Positions 15,449 through 64,000 of a stretch of DNA of 64,000 bases are shown here, one piece after another. This DNA comes from a virus (Duplodnaviria; Caudoviricetes), in IMG/VR virus record IMGVR_UViG_3300033416_000003, positions 3,668 to 67,667 of that record. One strand, 5' to 3'. The notes under the pieces are model-generated. The model was not told where the DNA came from. It saw nothing but the letters and a program-made list of their open reading frames with translations, and did no database searches. Position numbers and translations under genes: made by a program. Within the stretch, counting starts at the first letter, position 1, and every line of letters begins with the position of its first letter.

Positions 15449-15640
15449 TCATTGCCCCTCCTTGCAAGCTCTCAGCGCCGCCTCCAAGTCGCTGATTGAG
15501 ACCTTGTATACTGTGTCGCCAACCCGTAGGTTGACCATCCGGGACGAAGTCCATTCGGAGCAGACCTCAATGGATGACCCGAGCTTTGCCTCATGGTCAT
15601 CCACCGCGTACAGTGTGATCCGACAAACAACCTCATTCAT
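15449..15640 (-). CDS. hypothetical protein (cassette in junction-repeat array)
   Basis: Starts at the ATG of the junction repeat. Confidence 0.6.
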   Translation of the reverse strand: MNEVVCRITLYAVDDHEAKLGSSIEVCSEWTSSRMVNLRVGDTVYKVSISDLEAALRACKEGQ

Positions 15641-15978
15641 CGCGTCACCCCCGACCACGAAGCGTCTCCGGACTCGACTTTCTCGTTGTAGCGTTCGTTG
15701 ATTGCCGCGAATACCGCTTCCCAGGCGGGACCATGCTGGGCCTTCAGCCCCGCCACAACGTGCGCCAGCTCGTGGCCCAGTACCTCAACGGCGCCACACA
15801 ACGGAGTTGCAACGTCAATCTGAATCACGGGCACCGATCCAGTCTCCAGGTCAGTAGCTCCCCAGCATTCTTCCTCAGAGTGAAGACCGTAGACGAACAC
15901 CACCTCAACGGAAGTCGTTGGGTAAAGCTCTTCAAACACACGAACTACGAGTGCCAGGGGGTCTTCAAACGAGATCAT
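15637..15978 (-). CDS. SprT-like HExxH zinc metallopeptidase domain protein
   Basis: VLGHELAHVVAG...HGPAWEAVF. Confidence 0.75.
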   Translation of the reverse strand: MISFEDPLALVVRVFEELYPTTSVEVVFVYGLHSEEECWGATDLETGSVPVIQIDVATPLCGAVEVLGHELAHVVAGLKAQHGPAWEAVFAAINERYNEKVESGDASWSGVTR

Positions 15979-16247
15979 GGCTCATCCCATCCCACGACCC
16001 TGATCCGGGTCTGGTAGGTGACGTCGTTCTCGCCAGTGGCGCGCGCAGCCTTGTCTGTCGGCACCGGCTCCAGTTCGTCGGGATCGATCTCCTCGATCAT
16101 GATCCGGCTTTCCCAGCCTGGGTCCTCCACGGCTCGTTGTAAAGCCACTTGAGCGGCGCGTTCAAGGTCGTAGTCCGGCTCTCCGTCCAGGGAGTAGATC
16201 ATCGCTGAGATCGAAACGCGATGCAGCCTGAGTGTTGGTGTGGTCAT
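15975..16247 (-). CDS. hypothetical protein (cassette)
   Basis: Starts at the junction-repeat ATG (MTTPTLR). Confidence 0.6.
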   Translation of the reverse strand: MTTPTLRLHRVSISAMIYSLDGEPDYDLERAAQVALQRAVEDPGWESRIMIEEIDPDELEPVPTDKAARATGENDVTYQTRIRVVGWDEP

Positions 16248-16251
16248 CGCG

Positions 16252-16665
16252 TCACCTCCGACCACGCTCAGGATCTTCGGTCTCCGGGACGATGCCAAAC
16301 GATAGCAACTCCTGCCGGCATCTTTCCGCCGTACGAAGAGACCTGGCGTATAGCTTCTCAAGTTCTTGCTTATATGCCTCCAATCGTAGAGCCTTGCGCT
16401 TTTCTTCACGCTCCCTTTCTCGATCCAGTTCTTCACGCGCCGACACCCACCCGGCTGGATGAGACCAGCTGCCGCCAACACAAGATTCGCAGGAGCCGGT
16501 CCACCAAAACCTATCTATCGTGTGCAAGCAGGCCGCGCAGTTTCGTACTCCGGACTCTTCTTTTGATACAGTTCTCTCCAGCCTTTCTAGGCGGGTAAGT
16601 ACACGCTCTGGAGGGTATTCCATAGCCCAAGTGTCACCACAATCCCCGCAATGCAAATTGACCAT
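16252..16665 (-). CDS. zinc-binding hypothetical protein (cassette)
   Basis: CGDC, CAAC, CESC; stop codon lies within the repeat. Confidence 0.6.
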   Translation of the reverse strand: MVNLHCGDCGDTWAMEYPPERVLTRLERLERTVSKEESGVRNCAACLHTIDRFWWTGSCESCVGGSWSHPAGWVSAREELDREREREEKRKALRLEAYKQELEKLYARSLRTAERCRQELLSFGIVPETEDPERGRR

Positions 16666-16666
16666 G

Positions 16667-16864
16667 TCACTGCACCCCCGACCACGCCGAAGCGTCTCCG
16701 GACGCGGCTCGTCGGGCCTCCCGGAATCGCCTCAGACGGTCGATGCTGTCGCGCGCCTCCTTGGCTACTCGTGCTCGGTACTCAGCGAGCTTCCTGCTGG
16801 CGCCGGAGCAGTCGATCAGCACTTGGCTCAACCATTCTCCGCGCTGACTCACGGTTGCACCCAC
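16667..16864 (-). CDS. hypothetical protein (cassette)
   Basis: Ends SGDASAWSGVQ, encoded by the repeat. Confidence 0.5.
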   Translation of the reverse strand: MGATVSQRGEWLSQVLIDCSGASRKLAEYRARVAKEARDSIDRLRRFREARRAASGDASAWSGVQ

Positions 16865-16865
16865 G

Positions 16866-17048
16866 TCACCCCCATCGATCCGAGAACCACGCATACTTGA
16901 CGTTGATCCATAGCCCGGATAGCCCCTCTGCGACTCCGAGCCAGGCTCCGACAATGATGGCCGCTGGCAGCTCGATCAGTAACGCTGCCAGAACGATCAA
17001 GGGGCGCCTCACCCATGGGCTGGGATGGTAGAGTACTGTGAATCTCAT
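16866..17048 (-). CDS. small membrane protein (cassette)
   Basis: Hydrophobic LIVLAALLIELPAAIIVGAWLG segment. Confidence 0.6.
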   Translation of the reverse strand: MRFTVLYHPSPWVRRPLIVLAALLIELPAAIIVGAWLGVAEGLSGLWINVKYAWFSDRWG

Positions 17049-17884
17049 CGCGTCACCCCCGACCAGGCTCCCGGACTGACGGAGAACATCGCCCCAACTA
17101 GTTGTGGGCGTGCCCAGAAGCGCTGAAATTTCTTCCACTTCCAGCTACCATTCCCGATCTCATCTCGCCAGAGCATCGCCATTGGAAAGAACCCGGCAGC
17201 GAGTGCTTGTCGGAGCCGGGCCTCTGCGGCGGCGAACGTGTCACGCGGGTAACCAACGAGCACGTAGCAGCGTAGCGTATGACTGGCGACCGTGAACCCG
17301 GAGGCAACCAGCTTCTTCCCGACCGCGATCAGAGGTTCTATGTCGTCCGGCGTGTCGTAGGCAAAGAACATCTGTTTCGGCCTCAGGCCGGCGAGCAATT
17401 CGATGTGCCAATCCTGTAACCGAGCCGCCTCCAACCCGCCCGTAAACTCGGCCCGCTGAGGCTGGCGGCCAAGCATCTCGAACACCGCTCGGATGTGGTT
17501 CTCAGAACAGGCGAGGAGGTTGTCATCGAGGACGTTCCACCCTTCGGTTATGGGCAGCTCTCGAACATCTCCCTCTCGCCTCCACGCCGAGCAGAACCAG
17601 CACCTATTGGGGCAACCGCGAGACGTGATGACGTAGCCGGGCTTGAGGTAGCGCCCCGGCGTGAAGTCGCCGCCGCGTTCTCCTGTCGCTGGCCCGCCAA
17701 TCCTCACAGGGGCGATTTGCTCCCACTCGCGAGCAAGAGACTGAGCCCGCTGAAGGTCGTAGGTGAACGACACGCTCACGTGGACTTCGTCCACCTCCGG
17801 CGGGAATAGACCCGGGGCGGAGGTGAAGGCGAGTTCATCGGTCGGCGTCGCCCTCGTTCGACGTGGGAAGACCCGGGCTATCAC
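17045..17884 (-). CDS. radical SAM protein
   Basis: TSRGCPNRCWFC (CxxxCxxC), LDDNLLA, FTGGLEA, CYVLVGYP; GTG start overlaps the upstream TGA. Confidence 0.88.
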   Translation of the reverse strand: MIARVFPRRTRATPTDELAFTSAPGLFPPEVDEVHVSVSFTYDLQRAQSLAREWEQIAPVRIGGPATGERGGDFTPGRYLKPGYVITSRGCPNRCWFCSAWRREGDVRELPITEGWNVLDDNLLACSENHIRAVFEMLGRQPQRAEFTGGLEAARLQDWHIELLAGLRPKQMFFAYDTPDDIEPLIAVGKKLVASGFTVASHTLRCYVLVGYPRDTFAAAEARLRQALAAGFFPMAMLWRDEIGNGSWKWKKFQRFWARPQLVGAMFSVSPGAWSGVTR

Positions 17885-55194: not shown

Positions 55195-55224
55195 AATATA
55201 ACTCTATGGTTATGTGTTTGTCAA
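55195..55224 (-). promoter_or_regulatory. sigma70-like promoter upstream of packaging/structural operon
   Basis: TTGACA (55224-55219), 18 bp spacer, TATATT (55200-55195). Confidence 0.55.
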
Positions 55225-58887: not shown

Positions 58888-59089
58888 ATCGCATCATCCT
58901 GCGTATCTCAGATGTTCGACGCGAACAATCCTCTCTAAAGATACAACCAATAGATGACTTAGCCATCATCCGAATGAGACTCAAGCACCAGTCTTCATCA
59001 CTTGGGCACCCCCAACTCTCTACGACTCTCTTAGCGCGCTGAAACGCCCTCCTGCGCTGCTGCCTACGGTACGCTCTGGTACGGGTCAA
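58871..59089 (-). CDS. basic hypothetical protein
   Basis: MTRTRAYRRQQRRRA. Confidence 0.55.
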   Translation of the reverse strand: MTRTRAYRRQQRRRAFQRAKRVVESWGCPSDEDWCLSLIRMMAKSSIGCIFREDCSRRTSEIRRMMRCEEDE

Positions 59090-59589
59090 GACCGGTCCTT
59101 CAGCGCTTTCCAGATCACACCAGCCGCTTCAGTGTAAAACGGAATCTTCGCTAGCTGGATCTCGGCATCGGCTCTAAGCAGGATGGGGGCAAGTAATGGA
59201 TTGTACTTCGCGTCTACTGATCCGAACTCTCGATCACACTCGCTATCTGGGATGGAACAAACATCGCCATTTTTTCTAGTGTAAAATCTTTCCCACACTA
59301 CATTGTACTCCTCTTGTCGCTGGTTGTAGATTGGACCTAAATCCACTTCATACCGTTCCCAAATCGAATTAATTGCCGCAGCAAGTCTGCCATTTATCTC
59401 TGACACCTCAGGCCATAAATCATTGTAAGACGCAAACCAAAGCAGGTCAAGACCCGCCTCCGCAGCCCTGAGAAGCGATGACTTGGTTACCCGTACGCTC
59501 TTCCCAAACGTTGCCCGGAACAGCTCAATCTGCGGCTCACACGCGTCGTTGGCGGTCAACCACTTAACACTTACGGTGCGCTTAGTCAT
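59086..59589 (-). CDS. hypothetical phage protein
   Basis: WLTANDACEPQIELFRATFG..., ggagg RBS. Confidence 0.65.
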   Translation of the reverse strand: MTKRTVSVKWLTANDACEPQIELFRATFGKSVRVTKSSLLRAAEAGLDLLWFASYNDLWPEVSEINGRLAAAINSIWERYEVDLGPIYNQRQEEYNVVWERFYTRKNGDVCSIPDSECDREFGSVDAKYNPLLAPILLRADAEIQLAKIPFYTEAAGVIWKALKDRS

Positions 59590-59617: not shown

Positions 59618-59704
59618 AGGCTGGGTGGGGACTCGAACCCCATCGGCACGGATCTTCCGTAGCGTGAGTTGCGACCCCACTACACCGAGCCCCATGCCCC
59701 AGCC
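59618..59704 (-). tRNA. atypical 87-nt tRNA-like RNA (long variable arm, CGC in the anticodon loop, no encoded CCA)
   Basis: Perfect acceptor stem GGCTGGG/CCCAGCC; T arm TGGGG-TTCGAGT-CCCCA; anticodon arm GTGGG-GTCGCAA-CTCAC; variable arm ACGGA-AGA-TCCGT. D arm weak and no U8. Own promoter just upstream. Confidence 0.6.
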
Positions 59705-59729
59705 GCTTGAGATCATGCCCACACCTACT

Positions 59730-59758
59730 AGGATAGGGCTTGGAGATGAGGGTGTCAA
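59730..59758 (-). promoter_or_regulatory. sigma70-like early promoter (copy 3)
   Basis: TTGACA, 17 bp spacer, TATCCT; 30 bp identical to copy 2 (59712-59741 = 60619-60648). Confidence 0.8.
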
Positions 59759-59796
59759 GGGGGAGGAGGCGGAAGTTGGTGCTCAACATATGGTAA

Positions 59797-60597
59797 CTAA
59801 CTTAATGCCAAGCGCAACTTTCTATAAAACTCCTCGGGATCGATTGAAGACAATCCTGACATCGATCCGTCATTAAGCTCAATAACAATCCACTTACCTT
59901 TCTCAGTCTTTGCAATGTCAACAACAAAGAATGGCGTCTTACCTAACCCATTCAACCGCTGTGCAACTTTCTTGGCAAGTCTATTGGCGCGATCCGGAGG
60001 ATCACTGTAAGCTGGTTTGTGCTCTGGATGATCCGACCAATAATAACCACCACAAAGAACCTGTCCTCTATAACAGAAAAAACGCCACTCGTTCGTGATG
60101 GGCAATCCGTTAATCCCAACTCCGAATTGCTCAAGAGGTACATATTCCCGTACAACAATCCCTTGATCCTTAATCAAACAGTCATCCAGTAAACTGCTGG
60201 CCACACCTGGTATATCCCCGACGGTAGGACAAAACATCCGCCGATTCCATTCATGTTTACGAGAATTAGTCACTCCCTTTACTACATAAGACCCATCCGT
60301 AAGATTTGCCCAATTATTCCAAGTGCGGGGAGTTAAGTCTTTAATTACTGGGTACCACTGCCAAATATCAGCTACAAAACGGTGCTGCGCACATGAATTA
60401 ATCAGGCAACCCCCCAGATACCGAGTAACGTCTCTTTCTAGTTCTTCTGGAAAAGGCAACATAGAATAACGAGGAATGACAAGATGTTGTACCGGTATTG
60501 CCATTCTATCGGATTCAACTACAAAATAATGCCGTGCTGCATTAAGCTCTTCTTGCTGAGTCCAATCACCGTAACGGAAATAAACCGCAACATTCAT
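59797..60597 (-). CDS. ATP-grasp domain protein (R2K / DUF4343-like)
   Basis: YVVKGVTNSRK, VVREYVPL, EWRFFCYRGQVL, FVVDIAKTEKGKWIVIELNDGSMSGL. Confidence 0.82.
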   Translation of the reverse strand: MNVAVYFRYGDWTQQEELNAARHYFVVESDRMAIPVQHLVIPRYSMLPFPEELERDVTRYLGGCLINSCAQHRFVADIWQWYPVIKDLTPRTWNNWANLTDGSYVVKGVTNSRKHEWNRRMFCPTVGDIPGVASSLLDDCLIKDQGIVVREYVPLEQFGVGINGLPITNEWRFFCYRGQVLCGGYYWSDHPEHKPAYSDPPDRANRLAKKVAQRLNGLGKTPFFVVDIAKTEKGKWIVIELNDGSMSGLSSIDPEEFYRKLRLALS

Positions 60598-60636
60598 ACT
60601 ATGCTCCTGGTCGTTGGAATCATGCCCACACCTACT

Positions 60637-60665
60637 AGGATAGGGCTTGAAGATGGGTGTGTCAA
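60637..60665 (-). promoter_or_regulatory. sigma70-like early promoter (copy 2)
   Basis: TTGACA (60665-60660), 17 bp spacer, TATCCT (60642-60637). Confidence 0.8.
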
Positions 60666-60696
60666 GGGGGGTGGAGAGTGTAATTTGAGGCGTAAG

Positions 60697-60748
60697 AAAA
60701 AAGTAAGGCCCGCTCCCTATTGGTTAGTGGCCTGATGGGAGCGGGCCT
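60697..60748 (-). terminator. intrinsic terminator
   Basis: 12-bp stem aggcccgctccc/gggagcgggcct followed by ACTTTTTT on the minus strand. Confidence 0.75.
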
Positions 60749-60802
60749 GTCCGGCCCCTTGATCTACCACGTGGAGCAGGACCCCCGGGTCGCTCTTGCA
60801 CA
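60697..60802 (-). ncRNA. candidate ~105-nt small RNA
   Basis: Bounded by a consensus promoter and an intrinsic terminator; no RBS-led ORF inside. Confidence 0.45.
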
Positions 60803-60808
60803 CACAAT

Positions 60809-60837
60809 AGGATAATGCTTGAAGGTGGAGGTGTCAA
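60809..60837 (-). promoter_or_regulatory. sigma70-like early promoter (copy 1)
   Basis: TTGACA (60837-60832), 17 bp spacer, TATCCT (60814-60809); shares cttcaagc with copy 2. Confidence 0.8.
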
Positions 60838-61247
60838 GAGGATGGGACACTGGCTAGAGGACGATTTTGAAAAATGTGGGGAACTTGGAGAGGGGGATTC
60901 CGTCTCTGAAGAGCGAATCGAAGGGGGCAACGGTGGGCCTAAGGGGCTGGGTCCTGTACGTTTCTCCCCTGCCTTGACGCATCTTGTCAGGCCCCATGCC
61001 GCAGCGCAGCGTCCGATAACTCTCATTCTGTCAACCTAGACATGGCGTCACTAGCTAGCTGGTCTCAGGATGGCGTGATTATTTCTCATGATGACGTTGA
61101 GACTGGGCACATGAGACACTGCGGAAGGGGGAAGGGGCGGGGTTGGGGGACATATAACGTACGCTATACAACCAATGTCAACCAACCGGTTAGTTAGGTG
61201 GAGACTGGACGGAGGAATGAATTTTCCCAGTGGTGCAATTTGCATCA

Positions 61248-61294
61248 AAGTGTCTCATTAGTAGTGAGACACTTTTGAGACAGTGTGAGACACT
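61248..61294. repeat. TGAGACA(C/G)T 9-mer cluster and inverted repeat
   Basis: aagtgtctca-ttagtag-tgagacactt palindrome; direct copies start at 61265, 61276 and 61286; another at 61112. Confidence 0.75.
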
Positions 61295-61464
61295 ACCCTC
61301 TCTCTTACACTGTTACCACATACTAACTGCACAAACTTCCTCTTACTCTGGTCGCACAACCCCTGCGCTTAGCTCTTTTCAGCTTTCGTATCTCTGTGAT
61401 CTTACCCTCTCTATTACACTGTTACTACACCCTAACTGTACAGACTTCCTCTTACTCTGGCCGC
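61294..61464. repeat. imperfect ~62-bp direct repeat, two copies
   Basis: taccctctct(c/a)ttacactgtta...acttcctcttactctgg(t/c)cgc at 61294-61355 and 61403-61464. Confidence 0.8.
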
Positions 61465-61692
61465 TCGGCCCCGGCGACCCAGCGCCTCACAGCTAGAGTA
61501 CTCCCGCCCGACCCAACACCCACCCCCACCACAGCCCAGGTACACCCGCTCCGCCCATAAACCCCTATAGGGGAACTTTTTCACTCTCACGCCCCATTAC
61601 CCTCACTTTTCTTACCGCGCGCGAGACAAACACGGCATCACGCAAGATACTGCACTTGTGACAGTACTATTACAATCCGTGCCATTCTGGCA

Positions 61693-61721
61693 TTGACAAA
61701 CCGTGACCCAGAGCCGATTAT
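61693..61721 (+). promoter_or_regulatory. sigma70-like rightward early promoter
   Basis: TTGACA, 17 bp spacer, GATTAT; upstream of the first plus-strand gene. Confidence 0.55.
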
Positions 61722-61775
61722 GGAAGCATGTGGAGTGGCCGACTGATAACCCATATCCCTGATCGGAGGACGCTC

Positions 61776-62825: not shown

Positions 62826-62884
62826 GGCATTGTATCCGCATCGGGCGGTTCCCGGTGGCATGAACCCGATATGAGGAGGACATT

Positions 62885-63079
62885 ATGGACATCGAAGAGT
62901 ATCGTGATTCGATCGAGGCACAGGTCCGGGCAGAGTTCGAGCCTAAGATCGTAGCGGCAGTGGCGAAGCGCATGGAGAAGGTCCAGCATGGAATCGACAG
63001 CTTGCTGGCGGGTCGATCTGCGCGCAAGGAGCGCAGCGACAAGGGTCAGAAGCGCGGACCACGCAAGTCGAAGGAGTGA
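62885..63079 (+). CDS. hypothetical protein with basic tail
   Basis: gaggagg RBS; RKERSDKGQKRGPRK. Confidence 0.7.
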   Translation: MDIEEYRDSIEAQVRAEFEPKIVAAVAKRMEKVQHGIDSLLAGRSARKERSDKGQKRGPRKSKE

Positions 63080-63611: not shown

Positions 63612-63647
63612 CACAAGATGGCATGAAACCGATCTAAGGAGGAAAGT

Positions 63648-64000
63648 ATGGACAGCAAGGATCTAGCAGAAGTACTCAGGTTACACCGATTGTGGTTAGA
63701 AGACGCCTCAACTGGAGAACGCGCGGACCTCAGTGGCGCGTACCTCAGGGGTGCGGACCTCAGGGAAGAGGACCTCAGGGGAGCGAACCTTGTGGACGCG
63801 GACCTCAGGGACGCGTACCTCAGGGACGCGTACCTCAGGGACGCGTATCTCAGGGACGCGAACCTCAGGGGCGCGGACCTCAGGGGCGCGAACCTCAGGG
63901 GCGCGGACCTCAGGGGCGCGGATCTCGTGGGAGCGGATCTCGTGAGGGCGGACCTCAGGGGCGCGGACCTCAGGGGCGCGGATCTCGTGGGAGCGGATCT
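63648..64000 (+). CDS. pentapeptide-repeat protein, truncated by window end (missing from ORF track)
   Basis: aaggagga RBS; MDSKDLAEVLRLHRLWLEDASTGERADLSGAYLRGADLR..., with A(D/N/Y)LxX repeats as 15-bp tandem DNA repeats. Confidence 0.9.
   Translation, partial: MDSKDLAEVLRLHRLWLEDASTGERADLSGAYLRGADLREEDLRGANLVDADLRDAYLRDAYLRDAYLRDANLRGADLRGANLRGADLRGADLVGADLVRADLRGADLRGADLVGAD

Follow-up and report, generated by a model that had tools for sequence, protein, structure and literature searches.

A compositionally foreign R2K/DUF4343 ATP-grasp gene lies between repeated promoter copies in an orphan podovirus-like phage

The virus record IMGVR_UViG_3300033416_000003 is a 67.7-kb IMG/VR contig that CheckV rates as linear and 76% complete, and the DNA analysed here, its last 64 kb, is referred to as the window. 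The phage, which may come from a wetland metagenome, is an orphan of podovirus-like type whose terminase is about 25% identical to those of T7/SIO1-type podoviruses, a distant likeness. Nearly all genes in the window lie on the minus strand, including those for the terminase, the portal and a 2580-aa protein, while small plus-strand genes begin at 61728 and continue rightward. The head of the leftward gene block, immediately left of an 890-bp non-coding divergent region, carries three copies of a sigma-70-like promoter (P1, P2 and P3), a short unit free of open reading frames (ORFs), a gene for an ATP-grasp enzyme of the R2K clade and a tRNA-like element followed by an ORFan gene (Table 1). 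The ATP-grasp gene is a compositional outlier enclosed by two copies of a promoter and its leader, and the arrangement looks like ordinary phage gene shuffling.

Table 1. Features of the three-promoter region, given as positions in the window.
Feature	Coordinates	Strand	Evidence or remark
Promoter P1 (TTGACA-N17-TATCCT)	60809..60837	-	Pattern match; 77% identical to P3 core; oldest family copy
ORF-free unit of about 106 nt behind P1, candidate small RNA or attenuator	60697..60802	-	Hairpin and U-tract at end
Repeat copy A: promoter P2 (60665-60637), 5′ untranslated region and Shine-Dalgarno AGGAG (60608-60604) of the ATP-grasp gene	60601..60670	-	
R2K-clade (PF14243/DUF4343) ATP-grasp gene, 266 aa, intact, compositionally foreign	59797..60597	-	Pfam R2K_3, E 1.4e-24
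Repeat copy B: promoter P3 (59758-59730) and leader	59694..59763	-	At its 3′ end, overlap with the tRNA-like element's 5′ acceptor strand
tRNA-like element with perfect 7-bp acceptor stem, canonical T arm and ambiguous body	59618..59704	-	Alternative 74-nt form from 59691
167-aa ORFan, first protein gene of the P3 unit	59086..59589	-	Lies 28 nt beyond the tRNA-like element; ribosome-binding site GGAGGA of its own

An earlier note on this DNA, made from its letters, had read minus-strand TTGACA-N17-TATCCT promoters at 60837, 60665 and 59758. This reading is borne out: the pattern has exactly three matches in the 64 kb, all on the minus strand, against 0.23 expected in shuffled sequence, and three or more were reached in 0 of 100 shuffles. 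Sites with a perfect TTGACA and TANNNT number only five across the whole window. The sole other perfect -35 site on the minus strand, TTGACA-N18-TATATT at 55195-55224, lies upstream of the genes preceding the terminase. To judge by sequence, P1, P2 and P3 would be strong sigma-70-like promoters of host type; their activity, and timing, are predicted on the same basis.

The near-identity of P2 and P3 on either side of the ATP-grasp gene, also reported in that note, is confirmed by an exact 31-mer, CAAGCCCTATCCTAGTAGGTGTGGGCATGAT, which the two have in common within a 70-nt repeat bracketing the ORF. Spaced 907 bp apart, the copies are 93% identical over a 43-nt core and 84% identical over the 70 nt. 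Their identity extends 18-36 nt beyond the -10 element, into the transcribed leader, an extent that speaks for duplication or recombination over promoter constraint by itself. P1, P2 and P3 also have in common the spacer motif CT-N-CAAGC, which is not needed for sigma-70 recognition, so that they would be paralogues of different ages or would carry the site of a common regulator. The promoter-family pattern (22 specified bases) is absent from IMG/VR and from metagenomes. A test of 93 R2K loci found the exact 31-nt repeat around the gene of this phage only; at the 92 others, the flanks contain no direct repeat of at least 14 nt. Contigs of three runs across the region gave scraps and a collapsed 31-mer repeat only, and no joints.

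The composition of the bracketed gene sets it apart. The ATP-grasp ORF has a G+C content (GC) of 0.438 and a third-codon-position GC (GC3) of 0.378. No other gene in a sample of 21 is as low in GC3, the remaining 20 ranging from 0.46 to 0.80, with the terminase, portal and other large genes at 0.54-0.76. The intergenic flanks that bear the repeats have a native composition (GC 0.55-0.59, window GC 0.554). A foreign ORF between two native promoter-plus-leader copies is the product expected from recombination at repeated promoters. In T4-type phages, recombination between repeated sigma-70 promoter cassettes known as PeSL moves ORFs, the unit spanning the upstream stop codon, the sigma-70 promoter and the downstream Shine-Dalgarno sequence (Arbiol et al. 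2010, PMC2839356). The promoter-mediated insertion of an unrelated gene, which the earlier note had kept as its fallback, is thus the reading favoured here, since the gene is a compositional outlier between repeats of native composition. Under the idea of an attP remnant, a PF00589 integrase was looked for and not found in the contig, which is 76% complete.

The same features could be explained without any horizontal insertion: the promoters would resemble one another because of a common RNA polymerase or regulator, through selection or gene conversion, and the ATP-grasp gene would be a long-standing early gene. Such an explanation draws on the dispensable spacer motif that all three promoters have kept, on the tandem strong early promoters that are classic in T7-type phages, together with the distantly T7/SIO1-like terminase, and on the GC mosaic found throughout the region. 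However, P2/P3 identity that runs on into the transcribed leader and a gene with the lowest GC3 of those sampled speak against it, and we consider it unlikely, although well short of negligible.

The first of the three units lies behind P1. The terminator-bounded unit of about 105 nt described earlier is recovered as a predicted unit of about 106 nt that has no credible ORF and ends in a 12-bp G+C-rich hairpin (60748-60706) followed by the U-tract UUACUUUUUU (60706-60697). This hairpin appears in the minimum free energy (MFE) fold and the centroid fold alike, and was missed by a terminator scanner because its loop is 19 nt long. Rfam gave no match for the small RNA or for the neighbouring control region. 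Complementary runs that might mark antisense targets of the small RNA and of the tRNA-like leader reach at most 11-14 nt, inside the shuffled range, and folding energy singles out neither of the two RNAs (z = -1.05 and -1.45).

The transcript from P3 is predicted to start at about 59723, which agrees with the earlier placement of this promoter some 19 nt ahead of the tRNA-like RNA (59704-59618). The acceptor stem (GGCUGGG/CCCAGCC, 7 bp) and the T arm (UGGGG-UUCGAGU-CCCCA, 5-bp stem) are both perfect, and their combined motif occurs once in the window and in 0 of 300 Markov-shuffled windows. A terminator scan found none from the ATP-grasp gene through P3 and the tRNA-like element to the gene that follows, and the element would therefore be co-transcribed as a leader. 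The gene it leads into encodes a 167-aa protein that finds only itself among 5.8 billion proteins and has no Pfam or PHROG match. In the ESM Atlas this protein gives weak leads only (score 0.85, template modelling score at most 0.47) to phage hypothetical clusters and YdhT_N/Imm5-like proteins. A 37-codon ORF running from an ATG at 59695 through the tRNA-like element was judged unlikely, because its G-run and start codon are only 1-2 nt apart and the T arm matches the tRNA consensus perfectly.

The body of the element is harder to read. ARAGORN at default settings reports no tRNA here, RF00005 has no match at E≤10, and the best Rfam clan match, to tRNA-Sec, scores 21.9 bits against a threshold of 47. 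Relaxed ARAGORN settings yield three incompatible cloverleaves, namely Glu-CUC (87 nt), Ser-AGA (74 nt) and Arg-ACG with 5 extra nt. A fourth, class II cloverleaf has a GUCGCAA loop (anticodon CGC) with canonical U33 and A37 and a D stem of 3 bp, all A-U/G-U, and lies 13.7 kcal/mol above the MFE fold; the competing models of the body thus place CUC, AGA, ACG or CGC in the anticodon position. The 74-nt form arises from a second 5′ strand, GGCUCGG, 13 nt downstream, and has ends that resemble those of a real phage tRNA. Exact 21-26-mers of the 3′ half are absent from IMG/VR, GTDB genomes and JGI metagenomes, and blastn against phages returned matches at the level of the T arm only, such as tRNA-Leu of Arthrobacter phage Mimi (E 0.9). 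The element is read as a leader derived from a tRNA, acting as a processing signal or mimic or else representing a tRNA gene in decay, with a decoding role as a minority possibility.

Such a role would make the element a working non-canonical tRNA, or a decoy for anticodon nucleases, expressed early and independently of the ATP-grasp gene. It could take a class II form with the GUCGCAA loop or an Arg(ACG)-like form with the loop enlarged by 5 nt, and would either change decoding or soak up a host tRNase. The perfect acceptor stem, the canonical T loop, a possible 5-bp anticodon stem with U33 and A37 and a strong predicted promoter of its own are consistent with this idea, as is the class II tRNA-Ser that emerged as the best foreign match to a covariance model of the element (26 bits). 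Non-canonical tRNAs with odd anticodons, moreover, occur in bacteria and phages (PMC5389517). On the other hand, the element falls below the ARAGORN and Rfam thresholds, its four cloverleaves are mutually exclusive and each is defective (a weak D arm, no U8/A14, or a 12-nt loop), and the class II cloverleaf carries the energetic cost given above. The element also has no encoded CCA, no relatives in the collections searched and no covariation. A functional tRNA or decoy is accordingly judged improbable.

The enzyme between the repeats can be placed with more assurance. Its 266-aa ORF matches Pfam R2K_3 (PF14243) with 87.6 bits against a cut-off of 26.3 and also matches PF18299 with 58.8 bits. 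It has at least 808 homologues, the best of which is 58% identical, and K107, K114, E170, R172, D227, E240 and N242 are invariant among 37 aligned sequences. The AlphaFold (AF2) model has a predicted local distance difference test (pLDDT) score of 95, and its nearest solved structures by Foldseek, at probability 1.0, are LysX/ArgX, RimK, Ddl and DcsG; PsnB is also among the nearest, and all of these are carboxylate-amine ligases acting on amino acids or peptides. A sequence search of the PDB with the enzyme found nothing. Neither the Foldseek matches listed nor the Pfam matches include an Rnl-type or RtcB fold, and no gene for Rnl1, Rnl2, RtcB, Pnkp or a phosphoesterase was found in the window. 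ATP-grasp enzymes activate a carboxylate with ATP and are not known to use aminoacyl-tRNA.

Within the clade, the protein carries ExN in its standard form (E240-L-N242) where R2K.3 has ExGD, so that it is assigned by this motif to the R2K.2 type of PMC4431377. The names clash on this point: DUF4343 is R2K.2 in that paper, yet Pfam calls PF14243 'R2K_3'. The paper in which the clade was defined predicts that R2K proteins join peptides to proteins in conflicts between phage and host (Burroughs, Zhang and Aravind 2015, PMC4431377), and CDC123, a eukaryotic relative, acts on a translation factor (PMC4431377). A survey of jumbo phages makes the same prediction of peptide or protein ligation and treats the RNA-repair ligases Rnl1, Rnl2 and RtcB apart (PMC7824862). 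The description of R2K proteins as proposed RNA-repair ligases, a premise of the earlier note, is not borne out, because both papers predict peptide or protein ligation and the neighbours of the model are amide ligases. In the literature and here alike, the enzyme is predicted to be an amide (peptide/protein) ligase.

According to the central proposal of the earlier note, all three parts could belong to a single early-expressed system against host defences: the ligase would repair or tag the tRNA-like RNA, or use it as a substrate, amino-acid donor or decoy partner, and the small RNA would be the third component. The check it named, co-occurrence of the RNA with R2K/DUF4343 homologues, was carried out on 92 homologue loci (12 metagenomic and 80 from IMG/VR; 430 kb scanned) with a covariance model built from the single 87-nt element (self-score 124 bits). 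The model recovered the element itself and genuine tRNAs only, and the RNA was found at 0 of the 92 loci. Such an absence is the outcome that the note had named as refuting its proposal, and it holds for loci outside the lineage of this phage, whose relatives are in no collection searched. ARAGORN placed a tRNA within 1.5 kb at 14 of the 80 viral loci, mostly in tRNA-rich jumbo phages. In the first 40 records, which hold 453 tRNAs in 6.4 Mb, 10.6 would be expected in the 151 kb of loci and 9 were seen; the tRNA count of the second 37 records was made at E 1e-12, too strict a cut-off, and as a minimum figure it did not enter the estimate of enrichment. The homologues sit in varied, tightly packed operons, and no conserved neighbour family was found up- or downstream of them.

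These results bear directly on the proposed system. The adjacency of the three units behind one promoter type, an acceptor/T-arm minihelix far beyond chance, the few R2K homologues inside phage tRNA arrays, one homologue near Pth2 and ADP-ribosylglycohydrolase, and the action of CDC123 on a translation factor all lend it some plausibility. Against it stand the lack of the RNA at all 92 homologue loci, tRNA proximity at background, the want of a conserved partner gene, fold neighbours that are amide ligases and not Rnl-type RNA ligases, and a gene compositionally foreign to its neighbours. A role of the RNA as amino-acid donor has a further point against it, as the use of aminoacyl-tRNA is foreign to known ATP-grasp chemistry. 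A single anti-defence system is therefore given very little credence, and that the three units are parts of one RNA-enzyme machine is not supported. Scarcely any more plausible is a variant in which a functional early tRNA mimic, as tRNase decoy or class II tRNA, and an R2K ligase modifying the translation apparatus would act in concert to counter translation-targeting immunity.

Modular shuffling at a repeated early-type promoter is, with moderate confidence, the best explanation of the arrangement. Three paralogous sigma-70-like promoters in tandem would each head their own unit. Unit 1 would be a short non-coding transcript ending at an intrinsic terminator, serving as a small RNA or shielding the next promoter as an attenuator. 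Unit 2 would be a 907-bp promoter-to-promoter cassette with a horizontally acquired R2K/DUF4343 ATP-grasp enzyme. The most likely activity of this enzyme is the attachment of an amino acid or peptide to a protein of host or phage, or to a small molecule, and such ligation would be a host-takeover or conflict function. Unit 3 would be a leader with a tRNA-derived structure, followed by ORFan genes. This structure is most likely excised by RNase P and RNase Z/E via its intact acceptor/T-arm minihelix, and excision would part the upstream from the downstream mRNA and release a non-decoding tRNA-shaped RNA; alternatively, the structure may be a decaying tRNA gene. The three units would have come to be adjacent through recombination or duplication at the repeated promoter sequence, as in T4-type PeSL cassettes.

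Several observations weigh against shuffling and against keeping RNA and enzyme apart. GC composition is mosaic across the phage in general, and low GC alone is for this reason weak proof of recent transfer. No relatives of the phage were found by blastn against phage records or by searches of IMG/VR with the terminase and the 167-aa protein. The stem-loop that defines PeSL is not at P3, a hairpin preceding P2 only. The lower-identity part of the repeat reaches the acceptor strand GGCTGGG, which aligns with the Shine-Dalgarno region of the other copy; seven perfect pairs are unlikely by chance and therefore hint at selection for RNA structure or function. Finally, an R2K homologue lies within a tRNA array in two IMG/VR loci, L080 (1-3726) and L081 (1-2283), and in L080 tRNAs are found 15-190 nt from both ends of the homologue. 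R2K-bearing viral contigs belong mostly to tRNA-rich jumbo phages.

The surroundings of the region hold further repeats. The divergent control region between the leftward and rightward gene blocks (60840-61727) contains a near-perfect palindrome at 61247-61275, several copies of TGAGACAC and two 74-nt direct repeats (61294-61367 and 61403-61476) that are 85% identical, together with a putative plus-strand promoter, TTGACA-N17-GATTAT, at 61693-61721. Possible roles of the control region are those of an operator or iteron region or of a replication origin. To its right, a 43-nt junction repeat occurs at 62856-62898 and 63619-63661 (81% identical), each copy carrying the ribosome-binding site and start codon (ATG) of a rightward gene, and resembles the junction-repeat cassettes at 15638-17076 of the window. 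The gene at 63648-64000 encodes a pentapeptide-repeat protein with a 15-nt tandem periodicity and runs off the contig end.

Had the idea of a module been true, it would have provided an RNA partner for the uncharacterised R2K ligases, but the evidence speaks against it. There remains a clear instance, in a phage that is not T4-like, of a foreign gene enclosed by two native promoter copies, and it supports repeated promoters as recombination handles for phage gene gain. A further phage leader with a non-decoding, tRNA-shaped RNA is also put on record. Both the promoter-flanked gene and the leader RNA are useful catalogue entries, and neither alone opens a new question.

Phage T7 has tandem early promoters, A1-A2-A3, together with early host-modifying enzymes such as the gp0.7 kinase. 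The region described here is similar in that three strong predicted promoters for host RNA polymerase cluster at the start of a gene block and precede a small enzyme that is likely to modify host proteins. It differs in that the promoters are separated by whole transcription units and an ATP-grasp ligase takes the place of the kinase. Genes for tRNAs are co-transcribed with mRNA in the metY-nusA-infB and tufB operons of E. coli, and the T4 species 1/2 RNAs and mascRNA are further examples of co-transcribed tRNA genes or tRNA-like processing elements. The tRNA-like element resembles these in having an acceptor/T-arm minihelix inside a longer transcript, where RNase P/Z would separate the RNAs, and its non-decoding body is like that of tRNA mimics. 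It differs from known tRNA-like processing elements in that no match placed it in a family, RF01684 and others scoring below threshold (20-22 bits vs 42-47). It is also unlike the allo-tRNAs (Mukai et al. 2017, PMC5389517), which have an 8/4 or 9/3 acceptor/T-stem configuration; the element has 7/5, and its eighth pair would be G-A. The enzyme agrees with the DUF4343 branch of the R2K clade (PMC4431377) in its Pfam match, its ATP-grasp fold, its conserved Lys/Arg/Asp/ExN residues, its sporadic phage distribution and its stand-alone gene. As regards PeSL cassettes (PMC2839356; Comeau et al. 2014, PMC4122927), only three copies are present here and the phage is not T4-like. Sister genomes or mini-circles that bear witness to an exchange between copies were not found here. 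In both settings, repeated strong sigma-70-like promoter units, reaching from the stop of the gene upstream to the Shine-Dalgarno sequence of the one downstream, flank variable, non-essential genes, the direct repeats permit insertion or deletion by recombination, and a terminator hairpin stands directly upstream of the promoter, here that of P2.

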